The notes beneath the pieces were generated by a model that saw only the letters and a program-made list of their open reading frames with translations, did not search any database and was not told the origin of the DNA. The position numbers were made by a program, and so were the translations under genes. From a virus (lineage: Duplodnaviria; Caudoviricetes): a DNA stretch of 38,838 nt. Position 1 is the stretch's first letter; every line of letters begins with the position of its first letter. Location: IMG/VR virus record IMGVR_UViG_3300013767_000084, positions 1 to 38,838 of that record, one strand, 5' to 3'. Of this stretch, positions 1,728 to 38,838 are shown piece after piece.

Positions 1728-3110
1728 CTATCCGGTTTTCCGTGTGGAAGTCTTGCGATGAGCAATAATCTTCTGCGTGTTGAAGCGCGACTCGCAAACC
1801 TCGCAGACCAGCGCGCGTTTCGAGCGCTGTCCGCGAGTCACCGGCGGCAACGTCACGAGGTGCATGTCCTCGGCGCGGCACGGCAGCCCGCAGTTCGCGC
1901 ATGGATTCCCGTCGTCCTTCAGCAGGAACTCGAAGAAGAGCGGTTGCTTGACCGGGTCGCCGTAGTTGGCAAGGATGCGGGCGCGCAACACCTCGAAGCT
2001 GTACCCGCGCCCAGCCTTGACGATGTGCTTGGTCAGGTTGTTCAGCGATTCGGTGAAGGCGTTCGTGTACTTGTGGTCGAAGACGGCCAGAATCTCGCTG
2101 CGCCAGTTCCGCATAGCAGTCAGCAACGGCTTGAACTCCGGCTTGACGGACGACTCGACCGAGGCCGCAAAGCCGTCGAAAGCCCGGATTGCTTGGTCCT
2201 TCGGCAGGTCGAACAGGCTGTAGAACGCCTCCTTGGCGCGATAGGCCGCCGCAATCTCCGGCTCGTTGTCCAGCCACATTTCCAGATTGAAGCGCTGCTT
2301 CTCGGTCAGGTTGTGCGGGCGCTTGTTGAGCATGACCTTGGAGCGGACCCAGTGCCGCCGCACTTCCGGCTGCTTGACCTTGGCCAGCCGAATGCGCACG
2401 CGGTCCATCGCCTCGCCGGCCATCCGCATGATGTGGAACTTGTCCACGACCACGACGGCGTTGGGCAACAACTCGGCCGCAAGTCGTTGGTACGGGCGCC
2501 ACATATCGATTGTCACGACCTTGACGACGTTGCGGTCCTTGAACTGCCACAACCAGGCAGCCAAGGTGTCCTTGTCTCGGGCTGGAAGCATGTCCAGCAG
2601 ACGACGGCCTTCCACGTCCGTCAGAACAAGCCGCAGCTCGCCTGCAATCTTCGTCTCGTCGATGCCAAGCACTCTTGGCAGCCGCGGCTTGTGCTGGGAC
2701 TCCAGTTCGCCCATGCGCTCGGTGGCCACGGCTCGCACAGTCTTCTCGTCGATGCCAACCTCTCTGGCCACATGGACGAAGGTGTGCTTCAGCGCCTGCC
2801 GGGCAATGAACTCCGCGCAGCGCACCGTCATGCGGCGCTCGTCCAGAACACCGCCCAGAGGTTGCAGGAATGTCTCGCCGCAGTCCCTGCACCTGTAGCG
2901 GCGGACCGTCGCCTCCAGCTTGGCTGCAAAGCCGCGCAGAGGCGCATCCGCGTACGTCGTCTTCTTGGTGCCGTGCCGGTAAAGCTTGAGGCCTCCGCAC
3001 TTGGTGCAGGCGATTGGCTCGTGCACGTATTCCGCCGAGAAGGTCTCTACGAGCCCCTCGGTCCTTTTGTCGGTCAGCGACCAGCCTTCCATATCGAGAA
3101 TGTCTTTCAT
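1728..3110 (-). CDS. ISL3 family transposase
   Basis: N-terminal CTKCG...CRDCG zinc finger, HTH region, LGIDE, VTIDMW, VVDKFHI, TNAFTESLNN motifs; extra C-terminal CxxC..CxxC. Confidence 0.93.
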   Translation of the reverse strand: MKDILDMEGWSLTDKRTEGLVETFSAEYVHEPIACTKCGGLKLYRHGTKKTTYADAPLRGFAAKLEATVRRYRCRDCGETFLQPLGGVLDERRMTVRCAEFIARQALKHTFVHVAREVGIDEKTVRAVATERMGELESQHKPRLPRVLGIDETKIAGELRLVLTDVEGRRLLDMLPARDKDTLAAWLWQFKDRNVVKVVTIDMWRPYQRLAAELLPNAVVVVDKFHIMRMAGEAMDRVRIRLAKVKQPEVRRHWVRSKVMLNKRPHNLTEKQRFNLEMWLDNEPEIAAAYRAKEAFYSLFDLPKDQAIRAFDGFAASVESSVKPEFKPLLTAMRNWRSEILAVFDHKYTNAFTESLNNLTKHIVKAGRGYSFEVLRARILANYGDPVKQPLFFEFLLKDDGNPCANCGLPCRAEDMHLVTLPPVTRGQRSKRALVCEVCESRFNTQKIIAHRKTSTRKTG

Positions 3111-3155
3111 CCCCGGATTTTAATGTGGAAACCGCATTCCCAATCCGGGAGACGA

Positions 3156-3632
3156 CTAGGGCTTCATGAAGACCATGAAATGCGTCTGGCCAGCGCGACG
3201 CCCCGACGTGTTGCCGAACAGCGGCTGATGCGGCGTCAGCGTAAGCACCTCGCGAATCGGAACCTGCACCTCGTTCCACTTGAAGACAAGCACGCCCTGA
3301 GAAGCCAGCACGCGGAAGCACTCCGCGAAGCCCTTCTTCAAGTCCTCGTGCCAGTCGTCGGACAGCTTGCCGTACTTGGCAGCCATCCAGCTCTTCGGGC
3401 CAGCACGCTTCAGGTGCGGCGGGTCGAAAGCGACGAGTCGAAAGTGCTCGTCCGGAAAGGGCAGCGCTCTGAAGTCCATCACTTGGTCGGGCTCGATGCG
3501 CAACGTTCGTCCGTCGCAAAGAACATGCTCTTCCTGACGACGGTCCCCGTACACAGCATTCGGATGTTTTTTGTCGAACCACCACATGCGACTGCCGCAG
3601 CAGGGGTCGAGTATGAGCTGAAGTTGCTCCAA
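3156..3632 (-). CDS. SAM-dependent (probable N6-adenine/N4-cytosine DNA) methyltransferase, phage type
   Basis: ILDPCCGSRMWWFDK (motif I) and VAFDPPH (motif IV-like), FAECFRVL; TTG start at 3632 with AGGAG RBS (ORF is open to 3671). Confidence 0.85.
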   Translation of the reverse strand: MEQLQLILDPCCGSRMWWFDKKHPNAVYGDRRQEEHVLCDGRTLRIEPDQVMDFRALPFPDEHFRLVAFDPPHLKRAGPKSWMAAKYGKLSDDWHEDLKKGFAECFRVLASQGVLVFKWNEVQVPIREVLTLTPHQPLFGNTSGRRAGQTHFMVFMKP

Positions 3633-3816
3633 GGCGCGGGCTCCTTTCCACACGAAATTCCGTTCCACCATTATACTTCATCATTATGGTTTCCACACGT
3701 TATTCCGATTACCCAGAAAAAGAAAAGGGCCGAGACACACGCCTCGGCCCGAATCCGTGCTTGCGACCGACTCACTCACAGGGCAAGGAGACACTGCTCA
3801 GCGACGCGCGCCGCAA

Positions 3817-10911: not shown

Positions 10912-10934
10912 CGCGACGGCAACGCCACAACGCA

Positions 10935-10959
10935 AAAGTGTCCCCAGGTGGGACACTTT
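10935..10959. repeat. 25-bp palindrome, candidate parS 1
   Basis: AAAGTGTCCC-CAGGT-GGGACACTTT just upstream of the parA promoter (TTGCCA-17-TATCGT, 10972-11000). Confidence 0.75.
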
Positions 10960-11033
10960 TTTATTTGCGCCTTGCCATTCAGGTTTTCCGCGTATATCGT
11001 TCACGCGTGTCAACTACAACGCACACGGAAACC

Positions 11034-11867
11034 ATGAACGCAGAAACGAAGAAGGCTAAGGTCATTGCGATCGTCAACCACAAGGGCGGCTGCGGCAAGA
11101 CCACCTCCACGGTCAACCTGGCCAGCGAATTCGCGCGGCAAGGCAACAGCGTGCTCGTCGTGGATCTTGACCCGCAGGCCAACGCCACGCTGCACATCGG
11201 TAATACCCACCCCTCCAAAGTGCCCGTGTCATCGGCCGAGCTGCTCACCGGCGACGACTCGATGCTGCCGCTGGCCGTCCAGGAGGAAACTACCATCGAG
11301 GGCGTGAGCCTGATCTCCGGCAGCCTCGCCCTGGGCAAGGCCGAAGACGAACTCAAGGACCTCTCCCCTCGCCCGAACGAAGAGCTGCGCAGCAAGCTGC
11401 AGCCCGCGATCGAGGTGTTTGATGTGATCCTGATCGACTGCCCACCGAGCCTCAAGCTGCTGGCCAGCAATGCGCTGGCCGCCGCTACACACGTAATCGT
11501 CCCAATCGAGGCCGGCGACCAGTACGGCCTGTATGGCGCCGAGGACCTGCTTAAGAAGGTCACGCAGATCCGTCGCATCAATCCGGAGCTCGAAATGCTC
11601 GGCGCCCTGCTGATCAAATATGACGATCGCCAGACGATCTGCAAGCTGCTCGCCGGCCAGGCCGAGAAGACGTTTGGCAAGCTGCTGCCAGAGAAGATCT
11701 CGCAAGGCACCGCTGTGCAGAAGGCCGCCGTCCTGAAGACCAGCACGCACGGCGTAGACCGCAGCTCGAAGCCGGCCCGACAGTTCCGCCAGTTGGCCGC
11801 CGCGCTGGCCAAGCAGCTACAGCTCAAGGTCAGCGATGACGTGCTGGCCGAGGAGGCCGCAGCGTGA
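11034..11867 (+). CDS. parA: ParA partition ATPase
   Basis: NHKGGCGKTT deviant Walker A, VDLDPQAN, LIDCPPSL. Confidence 0.96.
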   Translation: MNAETKKAKVIAIVNHKGGCGKTTSTVNLASEFARQGNSVLVVDLDPQANATLHIGNTHPSKVPVSSAELLTGDDSMLPLAVQEETTIEGVSLISGSLALGKAEDELKDLSPRPNEELRSKLQPAIEVFDVILIDCPPSLKLLASNALAAATHVIVPIEAGDQYGLYGAEDLLKKVTQIRRINPELEMLGALLIKYDDRQTICKLLAGQAEKTFGKLLPEKISQGTAVQKAAVLKTSTHGVDRSSKPARQFRQLAAALAKQLQLKVSDDVLAEEAAA

Positions 11868-12742
11868 GCAAGAACCTCAAGGCACTGCTCGCGCAGCAGG
11901 CGGAGATCAACCGGAAGACGCACCACGAGGCGGAGTTTGCCGACGACTTCGACATCGGCCGCAAGCACACCAAGATTCCGCTCGACCGCATCACCCCGAA
12001 TCGCTTCCAGCCGCGCCTGGCGTTCTCCGACGAGAGCCTGCGCGACCTAGCTGAATCCATCGCACAAATCGGCCTCACGCAGCCCATTACGGTGCGCCAG
12101 GTCGATGATGGCTACGAGTTGATCGCCGGCGAGCGCCGCCTGCGCGCCCATCGCCTGCTGAACAAGCCAACCATCGAGGCCATCGTGGTCGACGCTGATG
12201 ACGGTCAGTCAGCCGCCATGGCGCTGTCAGAAAACATCGACCGCGAGGGCCTCACGGACTTCGAGATTGCCGAAGGCATACGCCAGCTCGAAGAGCAGTT
12301 CCCCAAGCGCAGCCATCTGGCGAAGGCCCTGAACCTGGTACGGTCTGAACTGTATCGCTATCTTGCGTTCCGTGAGTTACCCGGCGACGTCATTGAGCGC
12401 CTGCGCATGCGGCCAGACCTGATCGGGAGGAGGGCGGCCAGCGACATCGTCCAGGCGATCAAGGATGCACCAGCACTCGCTGACCGACTGAACGAAGCCC
12501 TGGACCAGGTCGCCGATAACAAGCTGGAGCAGGGCAGGGTGGTCGCCTTCCTGCGGCAGTCGGACACCAAGGTAGCGAACAAGCCGGAGCCGATCGTGCT
12601 GAAGCAGGGCAGGGCGCGCATTGGCACGATCGCACGCACCCCAACCGAACTGGTGATCAAGGTCTCGCACCAGGCGCTGCCGCAGGAGAAGGCCGAGAAG
12701 CTGCAAGCCTTCCTGGAGGAACTACTGGAAGAGGGCGCCTGA
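11864..12742 (+). CDS. parB: ParB partition protein
   Basis: PNRFQPR, GLTQPITVR, ELIAGERRLRA, ENIDRE, HTH; GTGA overlap with parA. Confidence 0.96.
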   Translation: MSKNLKALLAQQAEINRKTHHEAEFADDFDIGRKHTKIPLDRITPNRFQPRLAFSDESLRDLAESIAQIGLTQPITVRQVDDGYELIAGERRLRAHRLLNKPTIEAIVVDADDGQSAAMALSENIDREGLTDFEIAEGIRQLEEQFPKRSHLAKALNLVRSELYRYLAFRELPGDVIERLRMRPDLIGRRAASDIVQAIKDAPALADRLNEALDQVADNKLEQGRVVAFLRQSDTKVANKPEPIVLKQGRARIGTIARTPTELVIKVSHQALPQEKAEKLQAFLEELLEEGA

Positions 12743-12767
12743 AAAGTGTCCCACCTGGGGACACTTT
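12743..12767. repeat. 25-bp palindrome, candidate parS 2
   Basis: AAAGTGTCCC-ACCTG-GGGACACTTT immediately after the parB stop. Confidence 0.78.
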
Positions 12768-12771
12768 GCCG

Positions 12772-13130
12772 CGCATATGTGGGGGCGCCTACCTGTGGAC
12801 AAAGCCTGTGGACAGCCGCATTTTTCCCCGCATATGTGGGGGCGGTCAATCGCATATGTGGGGGCAGGGCTGCCGCATATGTGGGGGCGCTTTTTCGCAT
12901 ACGTGGGGGCATGGCCTCGCATATGTGGGGGCGAAAATACCACATAAGCCATTGATCCAGCAGGAAAAAGCATGCTCTCTAGGTTTTGCTTTTAGCAGTA
13001 GGTTTTCTTATAGCTTTGCTAGTAGGGCGCATCGCTGCAGTGGACAACCTGTCGGTTGCCCACCTTTCGCGAAGCGCGCGACGAGCTGATGACAGACTGA
13101 ACATCAAAACAGAGCGCCCCCACTTATGCG
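12772..13130. other. Plasmid iteron origin (oriV)
   Basis: CGCATAYGTGGGGG at 12772, 12829, 12851, 12874, 12896, 12918 (22-23 bp period for the last five); DnaA-box-like TGTGGACAA/TGTGGACAG at 12794 and 12807; AT-rich tract about 12960-13025; inverted iteron at 13117-13130. Confidence 0.88.
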
Positions 13131-13194: not shown

Positions 13195-14202
13195 ATGGAT
13201 GACAAGGCTTCCGAAACCTTCGAGCTGACGCCCCCGCCCATGGAAGTTCCTGCCAAGCCCAAACGCAGGTATGCGCCACGCAATGCGGTTAGTCCCGAGA
13301 TCGACGATCGCCTGGTCAAGGAGGCCCGCGCTATCGAGGCGGAGGACGCGTTCCGGGCCGGCCTGACGGGTTACATGGGCCGCACGCTGGTGCAGGCCAC
13401 TCTGCCGTATCGGGAGCCACCCCGGACGCTGGAGGTATGGGAGCGAGTCGTCGGACAGACGAGCCTGATCATCAAGCAAGGCCACACGAAGAACAGGGCA
13501 GGGCAGTGGCAGCGCATCGGGTATCCGTACGGTTCCTATCCGCGGCTGATGCTCGCATGGATTGGGGCAGAAGTGGTACGCACGCGTGAGCGGACGATTG
13601 TGCTCGGCGATAGCCTGGCGTCATTCATGGCCGAGCTCGGCATCGGCGAACACCGCAGCGGCGGCAAGAACGGCGCCCGCACACGCCTGCGCGACCAAAT
13701 GATGCGCCTCTTCCTGGCCGACATCTCCGCCCAGCTCGGCGGCGCCTCGACGGAAGAGAATCTGCATATGAAGAACCTCGACGTCGCCGAGAACGCCAAC
13801 CTCTTTTGGTCCCCCACCAATCCGGACCAAGCTGGCCTCTGGCAATCCACTATCCTGCTGGGCGAAACGTTTTTCGAGGAGACCAAGGCCAACCCGGTAC
13901 CGGTCGACCTGCGCGCGCTGCGGGCGCTGCGCTCCTCACCGATGGCGCTCGACCTGTACTGCTGGATGACCTATCGGTACTTCTCGCTCAAAGACACCAC
14001 GACCGTCCCGTGGAGCGCCCTGCACGAGCAATTCGGCAGCGAGACCAAGACGCTCAAGAAATTCCGCGAGAACTTCCTGCCGGCGCTGAAGAAGGTGATG
14101 ACGGTGTATCCCGCAGCCAAAGCCACACCGCAGGCGGCAGGGCTGTTCATGGAACCGTCGAAGACCAGCGTGCCCAAGCGCATCAAGGACTGGCAGAAAT
14201 AA
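13195..14202 (+). CDS. repA: Plasmid replication initiator RepA (RepA_C-like)
   Basis: LVQATLPYR, GYPYGSYPRLMLAWI, RLRDQMMRLF, PVPVDLRAL..SPMALDLYCWMTYR, VPWSALHEQFG; next to iterons; start uncertain (ORF open from 13126). Confidence 0.92.
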   Translation: MDDKASETFELTPPPMEVPAKPKRRYAPRNAVSPEIDDRLVKEARAIEAEDAFRAGLTGYMGRTLVQATLPYREPPRTLEVWERVVGQTSLIIKQGHTKNRAGQWQRIGYPYGSYPRLMLAWIGAEVVRTRERTIVLGDSLASFMAELGIGEHRSGGKNGARTRLRDQMMRLFLADISAQLGGASTEENLHMKNLDVAENANLFWSPTNPDQAGLWQSTILLGETFFEETKANPVPVDLRALRALRSSPMALDLYCWMTYRYFSLKDTTTVPWSALHEQFGSETKTLKKFRENFLPALKKVMTVYPAAKATPQAAGLFMEPSKTSVPKRIKDWQK

Positions 14203-14203
14203 A

Positions 14204-14228
14204 AAAGTGTCCCACCTGGGGACACTTT
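14204..14228. repeat. 25-bp palindrome, candidate parS 3
   Basis: Identical to 12743-12767, immediately after the repA stop. Confidence 0.78.
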
Positions 14229-14245
14229 CATTGAGAGGAGGACTG

Positions 14246-14518
14246 ATGGCGAATCCAATCGAAACAACCGACGGGCCGCTCGGCCGCGCCTGGGCCGACT
14301 ACCGGGATCTGCTGCAAGCATGCGGCGCCCCGGAGGACCAGGTCCAGCAGATGCGCAATGCCTTCCTGACCGGCGCCACGCTGGTGTTCCGCATGCTCAT
14401 GCACGCCGAAGCGGTCGAGGACGTGAAGGGCGGACCGGCCATGGCGGAACGCATTCGCACCACGCTCCGCGCGGAGGTGGATCGCTTCGATCTAGAGACG
14501 CGAATGCAGTGGGATTGA
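14246..14518 (+). CDS. Hypothetical protein
   Basis: Strong GAGGAGG RBS; 90 aa with QMRNAFLTGA motif. Confidence 0.7.
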   Translation: MANPIETTDGPLGRAWADYRDLLQACGAPEDQVQQMRNAFLTGATLVFRMLMHAEAVEDVKGGPAMAERIRTTLRAEVDRFDLETRMQWD

Positions 14519-14541
14519 GGGACACCGTCACCCCTCCCGCT

Positions 14542-14569
14542 GGTTCTTATAACAATCCTTATGTCAAAA
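14542..14569 (+). other. dif-like XerC/XerD recombination site
   Basis: GGTTCTTATAA-CAATCC-TTATGTCAAAA; 11-6-11 layout matching E. coli dif GGTGCGCATAA-TGTATA-TTATGTTAAAT. Confidence 0.75.
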
Positions 14570-14932
14570 ATGAGAATTTGCGCAATCGCGGCCGCGCTTG
14601 GGTTGGGGACCGTAATCCTGCCAGCCCACGCCCTTAGCATTGATTCGTACCTTGCGTTTCGCGACGCCCGCGACCGCTCTGTGGCGACGGGCGTCAATGC
14701 CTACCTGGAAACGGTCGTCGATACCTTGCGCCTTGCGAACATTGCACTGGAGGAGGACGGGCGACAGAAGCTGTATTGCGCGCCCGCCAACATCGAGACG
14801 ACAACCGACCGCACCGGCATGGCCAAGATGGTCCTCGACCGCGCCATAGGCTCCAAGCTTGTCAAGCCAAACGACAACGTCGGCGTTGCTCTGCTGACCA
14901 CCCTGCAGCTGGTGTATCCCTGCCAGCGCTAG
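14570..14932 (+). CDS. Secreted small protein, Rap1a/Tai-like
   Basis: Signal peptide ending AHA; AYLETVVD, YCAP and C-terminal YPC pattern; alternative start 14561. Confidence 0.55.
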   Translation: MRICAIAAALGLGTVILPAHALSIDSYLAFRDARDRSVATGVNAYLETVVDTLRLANIALEEDGRQKLYCAPANIETTTDRTGMAKMVLDRAIGSKLVKPNDNVGVALLTTLQLVYPCQR

Positions 14933-15852
14933 CGTTTCTTCGTACCAGCGGGCTTTTCCGCCGGCGCCGCGGCTTCCTCGCCGGCCGGCGCGACCGGCAC
15001 CGCCCGCAGGGCCCGCACGGCGTCCAGCTCGCTGCGCACGGCGTCCAGCTCGGACTGCGTGTGGCGCAGCTGGTATTCCGCCGTCGACAGCTTGGCATTG
15101 ACCTCGTAGGTCGCGCCCTGCTGCTTGTGGAAGCTGTCGGACAGGTCCTGACCATATTTGCGCTGGACGGTCAGGTCCTTTTCCACCTTGGCCAACTCGG
15201 CCTCGACGTGCACGCGCGCGGCCACTTCTGCCTCGCGCTTCGCCTCGGCCACCGCCGCGGCCTGCTCGGCCACCACGCGCCCGGCACGCTCCCGGTCTAA
15301 CTCAACCCGCACCGCGGCCAGATCCGCCTCCAGGCGCGGCATCGCCTCCAGACGCAGCAGCGCCTTGGCCAATTCCGTGCGCGCGCCCTCGGCGGCATGA
15401 CGCTCCTGCTCGACCTCATCCCGCAGCTTGGCCTGAATCTCCTCGAGCTGCTCCACGCGACCGACGAGCGCATCGCGCTCCGACTTCACTGCATCGCGCT
15501 CGACCTCGAGGTCAGCGATCACCGCGGTCTGGCGCTCGCTTTCCGTGACCAGGTCCGCGTTGGTCTGCTGCAGCTCGGCCAGTTCCGCAGTCTGCCCGGC
15601 CTTGTCCGTCGCCGCCGCCTTCTCGATGTCGTCGACCAGGCTGCGCAGGGACCCCAGCAAGGTGAGCGGCGTCTCGGCCGGCGGCTTGACCTGTCCGCCC
15701 TTCCAGATATCGAGCAGGCGCATCACCGTGGCGTTGCTGCCGGTGCCCAGGCGCTCGCGCACCGCGCGCACCGTGGGCTTGACGCCATCGGCGCGCAGCG
15801 CGTCGGCGGCGGCGTTGACCTGCTCCTGCGTGATGGTGGCTTCCCGTGCCAT
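14929..15852 (-). CDS. kfrA: KfrA-like plasmid DNA-binding coiled-coil protein
   Basis: ITQEQVNAAADALRADGVKPTVRAVRERLGTGSNATV (KfrA_N) followed by a long coiled coil. Confidence 0.88.
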   Translation of the reverse strand: MAREATITQEQVNAAADALRADGVKPTVRAVRERLGTGSNATVMRLLDIWKGGQVKPPAETPLTLLGSLRSLVDDIEKAAATDKAGQTAELAELQQTNADLVTESERQTAVIADLEVERDAVKSERDALVGRVEQLEEIQAKLRDEVEQERHAAEGARTELAKALLRLEAMPRLEADLAAVRVELDRERAGRVVAEQAAAVAEAKREAEVAARVHVEAELAKVEKDLTVQRKYGQDLSDSFHKQQGATYEVNAKLSTAEYQLRHTQSELDAVRSELDAVRALRAVPVAPAGEEAAAPAEKPAGTKKR

Positions 15853-15863
15853 AACATTTCTCC

Positions 15864-15903
15864 CGTTCGTTTCGTTCTGTTTCGTTACGAATGTTATGTT
15901 ATG
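15864..15903. promoter_or_regulatory. Short-period repeat upstream of kfrA, candidate autoregulatory operator
   Basis: CGTT-CGTTT-CGTTC-TGTTT-CGTTA-CGAA-TGTTA-TGTTA, roughly 5-bp period, AT-rich, directly before the kfrA start. Confidence 0.55.
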
Positions 15904-15922
15904 AATTCGGGAAGCGCAAGGA

Positions 15923-17535: not shown

Positions 17536-18651
17536 CTACGCGGCGCGCGGCGCCGGCGGCGGCTCAGGGGGCGCGAGCACCGCCTTTAACCGGAGGACCG
17601 GGGCCTCCAGCAGGCGCCAGGACAGCCACGCCATCGCCAGCGCCCCGGCGAGGGACACGCCGACCCCCAGCACTGAGGCCCACGCCGGCACAGCGCCAGG
17701 GAAGAGCGCCTTCGCCCGCTCCACCTTCGAGAGATCGGGTACGAACGGGTGGAACAGGTAGAAGCCATAGCTGATGCGACCGATGCCGGCTAGCCACCCG
17801 GTCTCCAGCCAGCGGATCAGCCCCGTTTCGCCGTTCGCCGCGATCCAGCACACCAGCCCGGCCACGCACACGCCATAGGTGACGCGAACCAGCGCCGAGA
17901 GCATCGGATCCACCGACGCCTGCCATGCCACCTCGTTGGCGCAGAAGAGCGCGACGCCACTGAGCAACGCCACCAGGACGAGCGGATGTTGCAGCGCTCG
18001 ACGGCCGCCCAGGCCCTGCGGCGCGCACAGACAGTAGCCCAGCCCGCCCAGACCGAGCAGCCAGAAGTTGGTGAGCGGGTGGGTATAGATCAGGATCTCC
18101 CTGGCCCCGGCCACCTTGAAGCCAAAGACCGCGACGACGCCCACCGCCACCACCGCCAGGCAGACCTGCCAATGCCGCCGCGCGGGCACCGCGAGCAGCA
18201 GCGGCGCGAAGAACAGATAGAACTGCTCCTCGATGGAAAGGCTCCAGAAATGCGAGAACACCCCCGCCCACTCCTGCCGCACATAGGCAATCCATAGATT
18301 CGACAGGTAGGCGAAGTGATAGGGCAGTCCCCCGGCAAACTCACGCTTGAGCGCACCGATCGCCACCAGGATCGACAGCGCCACCAGCAGCAGGTAATAC
18401 ACCGGGAAGATTCGCACCGTCCGGCGAACCAGAAAGGTCTTGAGCTCCCCGCCGAAGCCACCACCGCGCACCTCGATGCGCCGGCGCTGCCCCATCAGGA
18501 TGCCGGTGATCAGATACCCACTCAGCGCAAAGAAGAGCCACACCCCCAGCTGGCCCACGCCGCCACCTGGCACCGTCACGCGGTGGTGCAGGAAGACCAG
18601 CAGTACGGCGATGGCCCGCAGGCCATCAAAGCCCCGGATTCGATCTGTCAT
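17536..18651 (-). CDS. Acyltransferase family 3 (OafA-like membrane O-acyltransferase) 1
   Basis: FDGLRAIAVLLVFLHH, GVWLFFALSGYLI, RRTVRIFP, HFWSLSIEEQFY, GRISYGFYLFH; multi-TM; start uncertain (ORF open to 18693). Confidence 0.93.
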   Translation of the reverse strand: MTDRIRGFDGLRAIAVLLVFLHHRVTVPGGGVGQLGVWLFFALSGYLITGILMGQRRRIEVRGGGFGGELKTFLVRRTVRIFPVYYLLLVALSILVAIGALKREFAGGLPYHFAYLSNLWIAYVRQEWAGVFSHFWSLSIEEQFYLFFAPLLLAVPARRHWQVCLAVVAVGVVAVFGFKVAGAREILIYTHPLTNFWLLGLGGLGYCLCAPQGLGGRRALQHPLVLVALLSGVALFCANEVAWQASVDPMLSALVRVTYGVCVAGLVCWIAANGETGLIRWLETGWLAGIGRISYGFYLFHPFVPDLSKVERAKALFPGAVPAWASVLGVGVSLAGALAMAWLSWRLLEAPVLRLKAVLAPPEPPPAPRAA

Positions 18652-18815
18652 TGGCAATGACTCGGCTCCCATAAACGTCGACGGATTATGCAAAATCTGC
18701 CGAATCTGGCCCGCTCCTGGCTCGCGGGTAAAATGCCAAAATTGTTGTAATCATCAAAAACGCAAGGTGCCGCCTCACGACCGCCCGCACCGCGCATCCC
18801 GCCAGAGGACTCCTC

Positions 18816-19952
18816 ATGCTTTCGCTACGACGCTTCGCCAGCCTCTCCGCCGACCACTCGTCCTTCATTGCCGCCTGCCGAGGCGCCGCCGCACTGATCG
18901 TGCTGCTGGCCCACCTGCAGCAGGTCTTCCTCGCCCCGTTCTGGACCGGCTCGTATGCCTACTGGCTGCTGGTGGCGCAGTTCTCCGTGATGGTCTTCTT
19001 CGTGCTCAGCGGCTTCCTGATCGGTAAGTCGATCACCAAGAAGACCGCCTCCGGCCAGTTCTCGCTGGTCGCCTACGGCGCGGACCGCGCGTGGCGGATC
19101 CTGCCGCCGCTGGCGCTGGCCTTCGTCGTGATGCTGGGGCTCGCCCCGCTGGCGCCGCACACGTTCCCCAGCGGCACCCCCGCTTTCCTGCCGACCAGCG
19201 GCTATGTGGTCGTCCGGGAATTCACGGTGCAGGCCCGCGAGTTCCTGACCGCCGCCCTGTTCCTGAACGGGTTCTTCGGGTCGAGCCCGTTGATCAATGG
19301 CCCACTGTGGAGCCTGTCGTTCGAGGTGTGGCTGTACGTCATTGCGGCGCTGGTCGTCGCCGGGCGCACCTCGCGGCTCAGCCTGGCTGGCGTGGCGATC
19401 CTGTTCGTCGTGCTGTCCGTGCGCAACCACAACTTCGCGGCCTACGGCATCGTGTGGGCCTCCGGCTTCGTGCTGTGCCTGCTGCATAACAACCAGCGCC
19501 TTGGCGGCTGGATCCGCACGGCACTGACCGGGCTGGCCCCGGTAGCACTGGCCTGCGCGCTGCTGCTGGCCTGGCAGTACGTCGCCCAGGTCGCCCGCTT
19601 CCCCGATCCGCGCTCGGCCGACTACCGCTACGTGATTGCCTTCAACGTCTTCATCGGCCTGGCGTTCTGCGGCCTGCTCGGCCTGCTGCTGGACCGACGC
19701 GCGCCGACCCTGCGCTGGCTGACGGGCAGTGCCGACTACTCGTACACCCTGTACATCGTTCACTACCCGATCCTGCTGTTCACATTCGGCGCCTTCCAGC
19801 CGGCCATGCAGGCATCGATGGGCACGCTGGCGGCGATCAGCCTGGTGACGCTGGCCGGGATCGTGCTTTTCGCGCGCACGGCCGCCCGAGTCGTGGAACA
19901 CCGCCCGACCCTGCTGCGCCTGTTCGGCGTGGCCACCCAGGCCCGCGCATGA
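18816..19952 (+). CDS. Acyltransferase family 3 membrane O-acyltransferase 2
   Basis: RGAAALIVLLAH, VMVFFVLSGFLI, DRAWRILPP, NGPLWSLSFEVWLY, SYTLYIVHYP. Confidence 0.92.
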   Translation: MLSLRRFASLSADHSSFIAACRGAAALIVLLAHLQQVFLAPFWTGSYAYWLLVAQFSVMVFFVLSGFLIGKSITKKTASGQFSLVAYGADRAWRILPPLALAFVVMLGLAPLAPHTFPSGTPAFLPTSGYVVVREFTVQAREFLTAALFLNGFFGSSPLINGPLWSLSFEVWLYVIAALVVAGRTSRLSLAGVAILFVVLSVRNHNFAAYGIVWASGFVLCLLHNNQRLGGWIRTALTGLAPVALACALLLAWQYVAQVARFPDPRSADYRYVIAFNVFIGLAFCGLLGLLLDRRAPTLRWLTGSADYSYTLYIVHYPILLFTFGAFQPAMQASMGTLAAISLVTLAGIVLFARTAARVVEHRPTLLRLFGVATQARA

Positions 19953-20644
19953 GCCGCCGGCCCAGGCTGGCGGCCTGGTGCTTCGCCGCGGCGCTGATGC
20001 CACTGGTGGTGAGCTGCCCGCGCGCAGCAGGCCCCATCGAGGTGATCGAGCGCCCGCTCTACCGCCAGGGACTCGCCGAACACCTGCGGACCGACCCGGG
20101 CGTGCCGCCCGGCGCCGTGCTGCTGATCGGTGACAGCATCGTCCACAACATCCCGGCCGACCTGACGCCCTGCCCGCACTGCGTCAACTACGGCATCGTC
20201 GGCGACACGACCGCCGGCATGCGCGCACGCCTGCCGCGTTACGCGTCCCTGCCGCAGGCGACGACGGTGGTCCTCGAAGGCGGCATCAATGACCTGCCGT
20301 TCGGGCGCGGCTTCGATACCCAGATCGTCGACAACTACCGGGCGATGCTGCAGGCCATCCCGACTACCGCCCGCGTGCTGCTGGTCGGGATCCTGCCGGT
20401 CGACGAAACGGCCCCATTCACCCGCCCGGGCTGGACCGCCCGCATCGCCCACATTAACCAGGCACTGACCGCACTTTGCCTGGCACAACAGCACTGCACG
20501 CGCGTGGAGGCCCATGCGCTACTGGCCGCCGAGGACGGCAACCTGCGCCCCGACTTCCATGGCCGCGACGACGGCGTCCACCTGAGCCGCAGCGGCTACG
20601 CCGCCTGGCTCCCGGTATTGCACGCGGCGCTCGCGGAACGCTGA
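19949..20644 (+). CDS. SGNH/GDSL-family protein, exported (possible lipoprotein)
   Basis: LIGDSI, NYGIVGDTT, EGGINDL, DGVHLS blocks; hydrophobic N-terminus ending LVVSC; ATGA overlap with acyltransferase 2. Confidence 0.9.
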   Translation: MSRRPRLAAWCFAAALMPLVVSCPRAAGPIEVIERPLYRQGLAEHLRTDPGVPPGAVLLIGDSIVHNIPADLTPCPHCVNYGIVGDTTAGMRARLPRYASLPQATTVVLEGGINDLPFGRGFDTQIVDNYRAMLQAIPTTARVLLVGILPVDETAPFTRPGWTARIAHINQALTALCLAQQHCTRVEAHALLAAEDGNLRPDFHGRDDGVHLSRSGYAAWLPVLHAALAER

Positions 20645-37232: not shown

Positions 37233-38838
37233 TTACTCCCAGAATGATTGGCCGACCGGTTGCGCCACCATGGCGCGGTTAAGCGCCGTAATCGCGGCGA
37301 CCACACCGTCGATCTTGTTCTCGGGCCGCTCCTTGTTCGGGTAGATGTTGTCCTTGCGGTCGAGGTGAGCGACCACGTTGGAGACCATCCAGGCCAGCAC
37401 CGGATCGCCATCGTGCTCAAGCAGTCCGGCGAGCACGAGCGCCTCGATCTGCTTCATCGGCTCACTGAAGTTCAGGACGGTCGCACGCACCTCGGTCATC
37501 GGAATGCCCTCAGCGATCAGGTGCCCCGACAACTGCGTCGCCTGGAACGGATCGAAGCCGACCTCTGGCACATTGAAGTCCGCACAGTCGTCGCGAATGT
37601 GGTCTTCGATCAAGTCGTAGTCGGTCACCTCGCCATCCGTGACGATGAGCTTCCCTTCGCGCCGCCAGCCGTCGTACTGGCTGTTGGTGCTGTTCTCGAC
37701 CGCCCGCTCCGGCAGGTAGTACTTGCCCAGGAGCGCCCACTTCTTGCGCCCGGCCTGCGGCGGGAACAACGTCATCTTTGCCGCGATATCGACTTTGCTG
37801 GCCAAGTCGAGCCCGATGTAGCATTCCAACCCGCGCAGGTCTTCGAGACGCAGATTTGGGTTCGCGCATCGGTCCCAGGCCGCCATGTCCATCCAGGGCG
37901 AATCCGCGTTGACCCATATGTTCAGGCGCTTCGTCAGGAAGTTGGCAACCGCGCTGGCCATGGACATCGCCTTGCGACAGGCCATTTCCATGTCATCGAT
38001 CAGCACCGAGACGCCGAGATTCGGATTCGCCTTGATCCACACCGAAGGATCGCGCCAGTCATCACCTTCGTCGAGAGTGAAGATGATGGCAAAGAAGGTC
38101 TCATCCTCGACCACTCGATCAAGGATCTTGGTCGCGTGCGTGCGCTGCTCGTAGCAGATGCCAGTACGGTCGGTACCGGCCGTGGTGATCATCCACAGCA
38201 GCGACTGGTCTCGCGCACCGGTCGCCGAGTCGATCACGTCGAACACGTCGCGCGTCTTGTGCGCGTGCAGCTCGTCGATGATGCCACCGTGAATGTTCAG
38301 GCCGTCCAGCGTGCTGCCCTCGGCGGACAGCGGCAGGAACTTGCAGGCCTCCTCCTCGATGAGCAGCTGATGCTGCAACACCTCGATGCCGAGCGCCTCG
38401 CACATTTCCGGCTCACGCATGGCCATGCGTCGCGCGTCGTCAAACACGATGCGCGCTTGGTCACGCGTGGTCGCCGCGCTGTACACCTCGGCGCCCGGCT
38501 CGTTATCGGCGCCGAACAGATACAGCGCGATGCCCGACGACTTCGCCGACTTTCCGTTCTTGCGCGCGACCTCTTCGTAGGCGCGGCGGTACCGGCGCAG
38601 ATCCGCATCGGTACGCAGCCAGCCAAACACGGTGGTCAGGATGAAAACCTGCCACGGCTCCAGCTTGATGCGCTCTTTCGTGCGCGCCCACCGACCTTTG
38701 GTGTGCGGCAGCAGCTCGATGAAGCTGCAGATGCGCTCAGCCGCCTCGATGTCGAAGCGGAAAGGGAACGCAGGATCGCCCTTTTCGGCCCTGGCCAGGT
38801 CGCGTACTTGGCGCTCGCACGCCAGCTTCACCCACTTG
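37233..38838 (-). CDS. terL: Terminase large subunit (main part; starts at 256 across the junction)
   Basis: LEPWQVF, VARKNGKS Walker A, IIDELH Walker B, ITTAG, GLDLASKVD, NKIDGVVA. Confidence 0.96.
   Translation of the reverse strand, partial: KWVKLACERQVRDLARAEKGDPAFPFRFDIEAAERICSFIELLPHTKGRWARTKERIKLEPWQVFILTTVFGWLRTDADLRRYRRAYEEVARKNGKSAKSSGIALYLFGADNEPGAEVYSAATTRDQARIVFDDARRMAMREPEMCEALGIEVLQHQLLIEEEACKFLPLSAEGSTLDGLNIHGGIIDELHAHKTRDVFDVIDSATGARDQSLLWMITTAGTDRTGICYEQRTHATKILDRVVEDETFFAIIFTLDEGDDWRDPSVWIKANPNLGVSVLIDDMEMACRKAMSMASAVANFLTKRLNIWVNADSPWMDMAAWDRCANPNLRLEDLRGLECYIGLDLASKVDIAAKMTLFPPQAGRKKWALLGKYYLPERAVENSTNSQYDGWRREGKLIVTDGEVTDYDLIEDHIRDDCADFNVPEVGFDPFQATQLSGHLIAEGIPMTEVRATVLNFSEPMKQIEALVLAGLLEHDGDPVLAWMVSNVVAHLDRKDNIYPNKERPENKIDGVVAAITALNRAMVAQPVGQSFWE
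38648..38838. repeat. Terminal direct repeat (assembly overlap), copy 2
   Basis: Matches 1-191 with a single mismatch. Confidence 0.97.

Follow-up and report, generated by a model that had tools for sequence, protein, structure and literature searches.

A candidate plasmid-type Xer recombination site in a family of tailed phage-plasmids without recombinase matches

The phage-plasmid and its replicon block

The window, meaning the whole stretch of 38,838 nucleotides analysed here (IMG/VR record IMGVR_UViG_3300013767_000084), carries at positions 14542-14569 (+) a dif-like 28-mer with an 11-6-11 arrangement, GGTTCTTATAA-CAATCC-TTATGTCAAAA. It is located 339 bp past the repA stop codon and is flanked by two small ORFs. 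The downstream ORF could start at an ATG inside the XerD arm (14561, its first possible one) or at a further ATG at 14570. The features of this region and of the end of the record are as follows.

10934..10960, no strand: 26-bp palindrome, copy 1 of 3, 5' of parA; candidate parS or operator
11034..11867 (+): parA, 98.5% identical to that of the C. oxalaticus X32 plasmid
11864..12742 (+): parB
12742..12767, no strand: 26-bp palindrome, copy 2 of 3, 3' of parB
12773..12932 (+): six iteron-like direct repeats, the predicted oriV; one inverted near-copy at 13116
13198..14202 (+): repA (RepA_C, PF04796), 86% to that of C. oxalaticus X32 plasmid unnamed3; alternative upstream start at 13126
14203..14228, no strand: 26-bp palindrome, copy 3 of 3, 3' of repA; also scores as a minus-strand terminator-like hairpin
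14246..14518 (+): 90-aa ORF lying on the XerC side, not assigned to any known family; no counterpart in four relatives compared
14542..14569 (+): putative dif-like XerC/XerD recombination site, 28 bp, called from pattern, matrix and conservation in relatives
14542..14552 (+): predicted XerC arm, divergent, facing repA; inner ATAA and the C at position 5 are kept
14553..14558 (+): central hexamer CAATCC, identical in relatives G008 and G003
14559..14569 (+): predicted XerD arm, 10/11 against the C. necator H16 chromosome-2 arm; adenine at position 25
14561..14932 (+): ORF of 120-123 aa on the XerD side, with a signal-peptide-like N-terminus; relatives have other genes there
14929..15852 (-): kfrA-like gene coding for KfrA_N and a coiled coil; short direct repeats precede it
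38648..38838 (+): terminal repeat of bases 1-191, one mismatch, inside terL

The 191-bp terminal repeat closes the record to a 38,647-bp circle. The gene content includes an HK97-type head, a siphovirus tail, a lysis cassette and CI/Cro/CII, and the plasmid block has the order parA-parB-six iterons-repA (RepA_C)-kfrA. Because the element has genes for the virion, lysis and lysogeny as well as for plasmid replication and partition, we class it as a phage-plasmid. What we take to be DnaA-box-like motifs lie at 12794 and 12807, within the iteron block. The product of the ORF at 14561..14932 gave a weak Rap1a-like match (E 0.039) that fell under the cut-off.

The nearest named relative is plasmid unnamed3 of Cupriavidus oxalaticus X32 (W01), a closed 37,950-bp circle in a finished genome, with RepA 86% and ParA 98.5% identical to those of the window and a contractile tail. 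Further close RepA proteins were found on C. necator and C. basilensis contigs of 28 and 41 kb. Since the closest RepA proteins come from these three Cupriavidus species, the host of the window is probably also a Cupriavidus. An extrachromosomal state is indicated by the closure of the window to a circle and by W01, a closed plasmid in the host of the relative rather than in that of the window. No close RepA relative was found in the phage collection, and blastn of 14200-15000 against plasmids gave short weak matches only, among the matches listed. Among the sequencing-run matches listed there was no RNA run and one DNA run, possibly the source of the window itself.

Mosaicism was strong among the window, W01, G002, G003, G008 and G010. 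The immunity, replicon and lysis modules are common, the tails differ (sipho or contractile Mu-like), and the initiators are swapped. The three-copy palindrome is retained in W01, G002 and G003. Period-5 direct repeats upstream of kfrA (window 15850-15920), kept in G002 and G003, are likely to be a KfrA operator. Between the tail and lysis genes, window 17536-20644 carries two divergent Acyl_transf_3 (O-acetyltransferase-like) genes and a GDSL esterase-like gene, possibly a surface-modification cassette; acyltransferase-like genes occur in the same region of G003 and G008. An ISL3-family transposase gene (1728-3671, -), beside a small methyltransferase-like ORF, sits between a Q-like gene and the HNH/terminase genes and has no match in the relatives compared. 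The HNH gene adjoins a P27-type small terminase gene, which we take as a sign of cos packaging. This suggests that the phage is packaged by cos, in which case circularisation after infection should not need the dif-like site.

The earlier note on this DNA had described the element as lacking a resolvase, and our searches agree with it. Six-frame searches of the window gave 0 matches to the tyrosine recombinase (PF00589), serine recombinase (PF00239) and telomere resolvase (PF16684) families, and ORF scans of the window found no recombinase. The only DNA-rearranging enzyme found in the window is the ISL3 (DDE) transposase. Both PF00589 and PF00239 were also absent from all seven phage-plasmid records described below, although a missing recombinase means little in G008, which is a 16-kb fragment. 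A linear prophage with a protelomerase was considered and set aside, PF16684 being found in 0/5 records tested. The window may still encode a recombinase that has diverged beyond the reach of the Pfam, PHROG and NCBIfam models.

Sequence and conservation of the dif-like site

We re-read the 28-mer at 14542-14569 exactly as the earlier note had described it, with the 11-6-11 dif layout and the inner ATAA/TTATG, and found it to be unique in the window. The pattern ATAA-N6-TTATGTYAAA with up to 2 mismatches had this single match, against 0.01 expected, and one of 100 shuffled windows reached one match. A weight matrix was built from five named Cupriavidus/Ralstonia large-replicon sites. In answer to a proposal that the site be scored against a betaproteobacterial dif matrix, this matrix ranked the 28-mer first in the genome, at 21.6 bits compared with 15.2 for the runner-up, and none of 60 third-order Markov shuffles reached its score; the test is partly circular, since the training sites were collected with the same pattern. 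With a six-site matrix, the window site scored 23.5 bits compared with 28-39 for Cupriavidus/Ralstonia host-side sites, the lower score being due to its divergent XerC arm, a poor match to the seven published Cupriavidus/Ralstonia arms. As is typical of XerCD sites (xrs or dif-like), the 28-mer has two 11-bp arms, a 6-bp centre and a palindromic inner part, and its XerD arm is better conserved than its XerC arm. Active plasmid sites are described as tolerating divergent XerC arms in R27 (PMC11724359) and in Acinetobacter (PMC11705084).

We compared seven distinct phage-plasmid records, namely the window, W01 (=G001), G002, G003, G004, G008 (the 16-kb fragment) and G010. Conservation in related phages had been proposed as a check, and the site was intact in 6/7 records (all except G003), each intact site outranking 60/60 shuffles. 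The seventh, G003, is a complete circle that keeps the CAATCC centre, and its XerD arm has a 4-base deletion relative to G008. In G008, 20 inner bases are identical to the window. G003 and G008 also have the gene downstream of the site in common (76/147 residues). The broken site in G003, together with the lack of a recombinase match, indicates that the site can be lost.

In five of the six intact carriers the site was found about 20-340 bp past the rep stop codon with the XerC arm towards rep, and G008 and G002 have just 23-30 bp between the rep stop and the XerC side of the site; the G004 site is ~9 kb from rep. The initiators vary, comprising the window RepA clade (support 100/100), a separate clade in G008, a third position in G004 and a Rep3 protein in G010. 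The genes beside the site differ between relatives and the flanks cannot be aligned; the inner ATA, TTA and G are retained. All six intact sites have asymmetric arms and adenine 25, the latter as in PMC2731167, and they conform to the three detection rules given by Fournes et al. (2025, PMC11724359). By eye, the XerC arms of G010 and W01 had 10/11 and 9/11 bases in common with C. necator H16 chr2, and that of G004 had 10/11 with B. thailandensis chr1.

Five ordinary plasmids, hand-picked from the top RepA or ParA matches, served as controls. In all five a tyrosine recombinase is encoded and the site, at up to 1 mismatch, is missing. The contrast between 6/7 phage-plasmids and 0/5 plasmids gave a Fisher p of 0.008, a value to be read with the rows being hand-picked and related. 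Four records were left out of this contrast. They are the fragment G005, which has a weak candidate site; G006 (105 kb, a RepA relative), with neither PF00589 nor a site; G007 (216 kb), with a one-mismatch site and no PF00589; and pChV1, with an annotated recombinase and a weak dif-like 28-mer. No TerL_ATPase match was obtained in G006 or G007. Seven further relatives were collected through RepA P0022 or the endolysin, and the site was absent from the three provirus records among them (0/3). No site was seen in the fragment G013, and the four two-mismatch matches in G014, against three control matches, were at noise level. A palindrome scan returned 38 stretches, with a dif-like site only in the two from W01.

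Other features of the relatives were recorded in passing. G004, a 41-kb P2-tailed element, has dif-like 28-mers at L068 18-45 (+) and 1040-1067 (-), inverted and ~1 kb apart, a pair that resembles a pdif module, and a T4-type RNA ligase gene upstream of parA (L068 6344-7498). In G003, a perfect palindrome upstream of kfrA (L060, about 18258-18287), with 12-bp arms around 6 bp and inner ATAA/TTAT, is a candidate symmetric Xer-like site, operator or hairpin. Upstream of parA, G010 has a reverse transcriptase gene (L122 9597-11102, -) and an Lcl C-terminal-domain gene (12036-12692, -), which to us resemble a diversity-generating retroelement.

Relation to chromosomal dif and other readings of the site

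Since integration at chromosomal dif had also been proposed, we investigated the relationship between the window centre and host sites. By eye, CAATCC matched the centres of seven published Cupriavidus/Ralstonia chromosomal dif sites at 0-2/6 bases. All seven of these centres start with T (Carnoy and Roten 2009, PMC2731167), and the first centre base of the window differs in 7/7. Sites on large Cupriavidus replicons matched at 0-3/6, except those of pHG1 (5/6) and X32 plasmid unnamed4 (4/6). The latter site also has 10 consecutive bases in common with the window, over the flank and outer XerC arm. The dif-like sites at pHG1 210294-210313 (L099, L101) and X32 plasmid unnamed4 308109-308128 (L092) lie near tyrosine-recombinase genes. 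The first three centre bases of G010 are those of H16 chr2 dif and of the site on the 1.19-Mb replicon of X32, so that integration of G010 may occur.

If the site were an attP for integration at chromosomal dif, as in IMEX, the phage would have both plasmid and integrated states. VGJphi integrates despite mismatches on the XerD side of the centre (PMC5357621), and both the G010 centre and the fact that the published difs are not from the host of the window itself leave some room for this reading. However, the VGJphi, TLCphi and GGI sites retain homology on the XerC side or over the full centre (PMC5357621), and such homology to the seven published difs was not found in the window. In Acinetobacter, sites with unrelated centres are reported to show no recombination together (PMC11705084). 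The DUF3653 domain (PF12375), which we take to mark a XafT-type activator, was sought and absent in 5/5 records tested. The family pattern matched only G002, G008 and G010 among IMG/VR contigs, none of them (0/3) classed as a provirus, and the three provirus relatives lack the site. An 809-bp contig of the source run crosses the site unbroken (depth about 7), a complete parAB-rep module is present, and the cultured relative is a free closed plasmid. A RepA scan of bacterial genome contigs gave one distant, unrelated locus and no integrated relative, and no integrated copy between hybrid dif sites was seen among the few phage, provirus and plasmid records scanned. Taken together, these results make integration at chromosomal dif very unlikely, and this part of the earlier proposal found no support.

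We also weighed an intermolecular role, in which XerCD would mainly fuse phage-plasmids with one another, or with megaplasmids whose centre is compatible, rep-kfrA serving as a swap point for replicon and cargo. The window, G008 and G003 have one centre in common but differ in RepA clade and tail, the genes adjoining the site vary, the X32 plasmid unnamed4 site shares the 10-base run, and one-mismatch centres, which the 5/6 match of pHG1 would resemble, cointegrate in Acinetobacter (PMC11705084). Against this, each genome of the window's group has one canonical site, similarity with relatives ends at the repA stop and not at the site, G003 and G008 share the downstream gene despite the broken site of G003, and no cointegrate was seen. 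As the main selected role it therefore appears unlikely, although it and dimer resolution are not mutually exclusive. The site might otherwise be the target, or a relic, of a TnpS-like non-Xer tyrosine recombinase acting in trans, KfrA then playing the part of TnpT. The distance from the site to a KfrA_N gene is 360 bp, and perfectly palindromic sites on Cupriavidus replicons, beside genes that we take from their sequence signature to be TnpT-like, match the window right arm at 10/11. Those sites have T25 and symmetric arms, whereas 6/6 phage sites have A25 and asymmetric arms, and no tyrosine recombinase match accompanies the window site as tnpS and tnpT accompany the symmetric core of an rst. 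KfrA as a TnpT was rejected, no tblastn match to TnpT-like genes being obtained at E 1e-3 in 19 loci, and G004 has the site and no KfrA match. Although TnpS/TnpT resolution systems exist (PMC4619425), we regard their involvement as extremely improbable. The same applies to a promoter or operator of the downstream gene that is dif-like by chance. In favour of this, the left arm contains a hexamer resembling a -10 box, and several relatives have an ORF start no more than about 20 bp from the right arm. Promoter prediction, however, found no sigma-70-like element at the site or elsewhere in 14100-15000, the motif has a single copy in the genome, the right arm and exact 6-bp spacing persist before unrelated downstream genes, and G003 keeps the downstream gene yet loses the right arm.

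Dimer resolution by host XerC and XerD

The best explanation is that the 28-mer is a plasmid-type Xer site at which host XerC and XerD resolve prophage dimers before ParAB partition, and we consider this probable (roughly three in four). The site, its conservation, the replicon, the circularity and the lack of recombinase matches were all seen directly. The prophage would be a low-copy theta plasmid replicating from the iteron origin, and homologous recombination between sister copies would produce dimers with two directly repeated sites. Host XerC would bind the rep-facing arm and XerD the other arm, strand exchange inside the 6-bp centre would yield two monomers, and ParAB would then partition them. 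A centre unlike chromosomal dif would prevent fusion of prophage and chromosome. Thus, of the two uses proposed earlier, dimer resolution remains the best reading for this circular phage-plasmid, which lacks recombinase matches and has a conserved site of the XerC/XerD type, and integration at dif was not supported.

The control of the reaction is the weakest step. The site is 28 bp long, like an accessory-free dif, and an accessory region is unlikely because the XerC flank is coding or very short and is not conserved. Granted the rest, FtsK-type control is the most likely mode, with slightly better than even odds. FtsK activation is given as the default for 28-bp accessory-free sites (PMC11724359), and xrs38 of Acinetobacter is described as FtsK-independent (PMC11705084); by analogy, the window site could possibly be FtsK-independent too. 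In enterobacteria, 28-bp accessory-free sites are reported to be almost restricted to large replicons (PMC11724359), so that access of FtsK to a 38-kb circle is not a given. The arrangement of a chromosome-type FtsK-dependent dif was not seen. The site lies ~1.6 kb from the predicted origin rather than opposite to it, no GC-skew switch occurs at the site, and the sign of the skew was the same on both halves in 4/5. KOPS did not clearly converge, since 26/41 pointed at the site (p 0.06, not significant). The 10/12 on the XerD side were not counted as support, because they may follow from the C-rich plus strand.

That plasmids use host XerCD has long been textbook knowledge. Both cer (ColE1) and psi (pSC101) let host XerCD serve an extrachromosomal circle without its own resolvase, and psi is also 28 bp. 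Unlike the window family, cer and psi have ~200 bp of accessory sequence on the XerC side, bound by PepA plus ArgR or ArcA, and the cer centre is 8 bp; in the window family the sequence beside the XerC arm is unconserved and consists of coding DNA or, in several relatives, of only 20-30 bp. The closest likeness in layout is to the R27-type xrs of Fournes et al. (2025, PMC11724359), which has 28 bp, a 6-bp centre, a divergent XerC arm and a conserved XerD arm. It too is found on a low-copy replicon that encodes a partition system, and no accessory region can be recognised beside it. However, R27-type sites are described from large replicons (most above 115 kb have one, and all above 242 kb) where KOPS tend to converge, and R27 also encodes its own recombinase. 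The window family differs in having a 38-45 kb replicon, a site beside rep and a tailed phage, and replicons of its size class are reported to tend to lack an xrs and to carry a recombinase gene of their own (PMC11724359). The pdif/xrs sites of Acinetobacter Rep_3 plasmids (Blanchais et al. 2025, PMC11705084) are similar in their 28-bp length, variable adjoining genes, divergent XerC arms and a centre that sets compatibility. There, several sites flank modules, in contrast to one canonical site per genome in the window family (with a second candidate in G004).

Among phages, IMEX (CTXphi, VGJphi, TLCphi, dif-type double-jelly-roll phages and GGI) share with the window a dif-like site and the lack of an own integrase. 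They differ in that they integrate, retain a centre homologous to that of host dif or at least to its XerC half, and are not tailed phages, whereas the window combines a complete parAB-rep module with a centre of its own, and no integrated example of it was seen. P1 Cre/loxP and the Xer-like recombinases of circular plasmid prophages (PMC7969092; PMC8026635) would do the same inferred job, dimer resolution in a tailed plasmid prophage. In those prophages the recombinase is self-encoded, and the window family, having no match, would depend on the host. Most circular plasmid prophages are listed with one or two Xer-related recombinases and some with none (PMC8026635), and they mostly carry their own Xer-like or Cre enzyme (PMC8026635, PMC7969092). 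Enterobacterial plasmids of 30-100 kb are reported to tend to be without an Xer site (PMC11724359). The window family departs from both patterns.

In a broader scenario, a Burkholderiaceae phage-plasmid family would have swapped a Cre-type resolvase for a host-XerCD site. A private centre, shared in the family and nearly shared with a megaplasmid, would block chromosomal fusion, and Xer would both resolve dimers and provide a fixed joint for cointegration and module exchange. We put this forward as speculation that is more probably wrong than right by a good measure.

In the literature, as covered by titles and abstract openings with few subscription papers, we found no report of a tailed phage-plasmid using host XerCD. 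The mechanism itself is known. What appears to be new, with good comparative support from the sequences, is that a family of tailed phage-plasmids lacking recombinase matches carries a candidate plasmid-type Xer site. Integration need not follow from the presence of a dif-like site on a phage. The closed plasmid member in cultured C. oxalaticus X32 makes the idea directly testable and, if it is true, the use of host XerCD would explain the stability of recombinase-less phage-plasmids.
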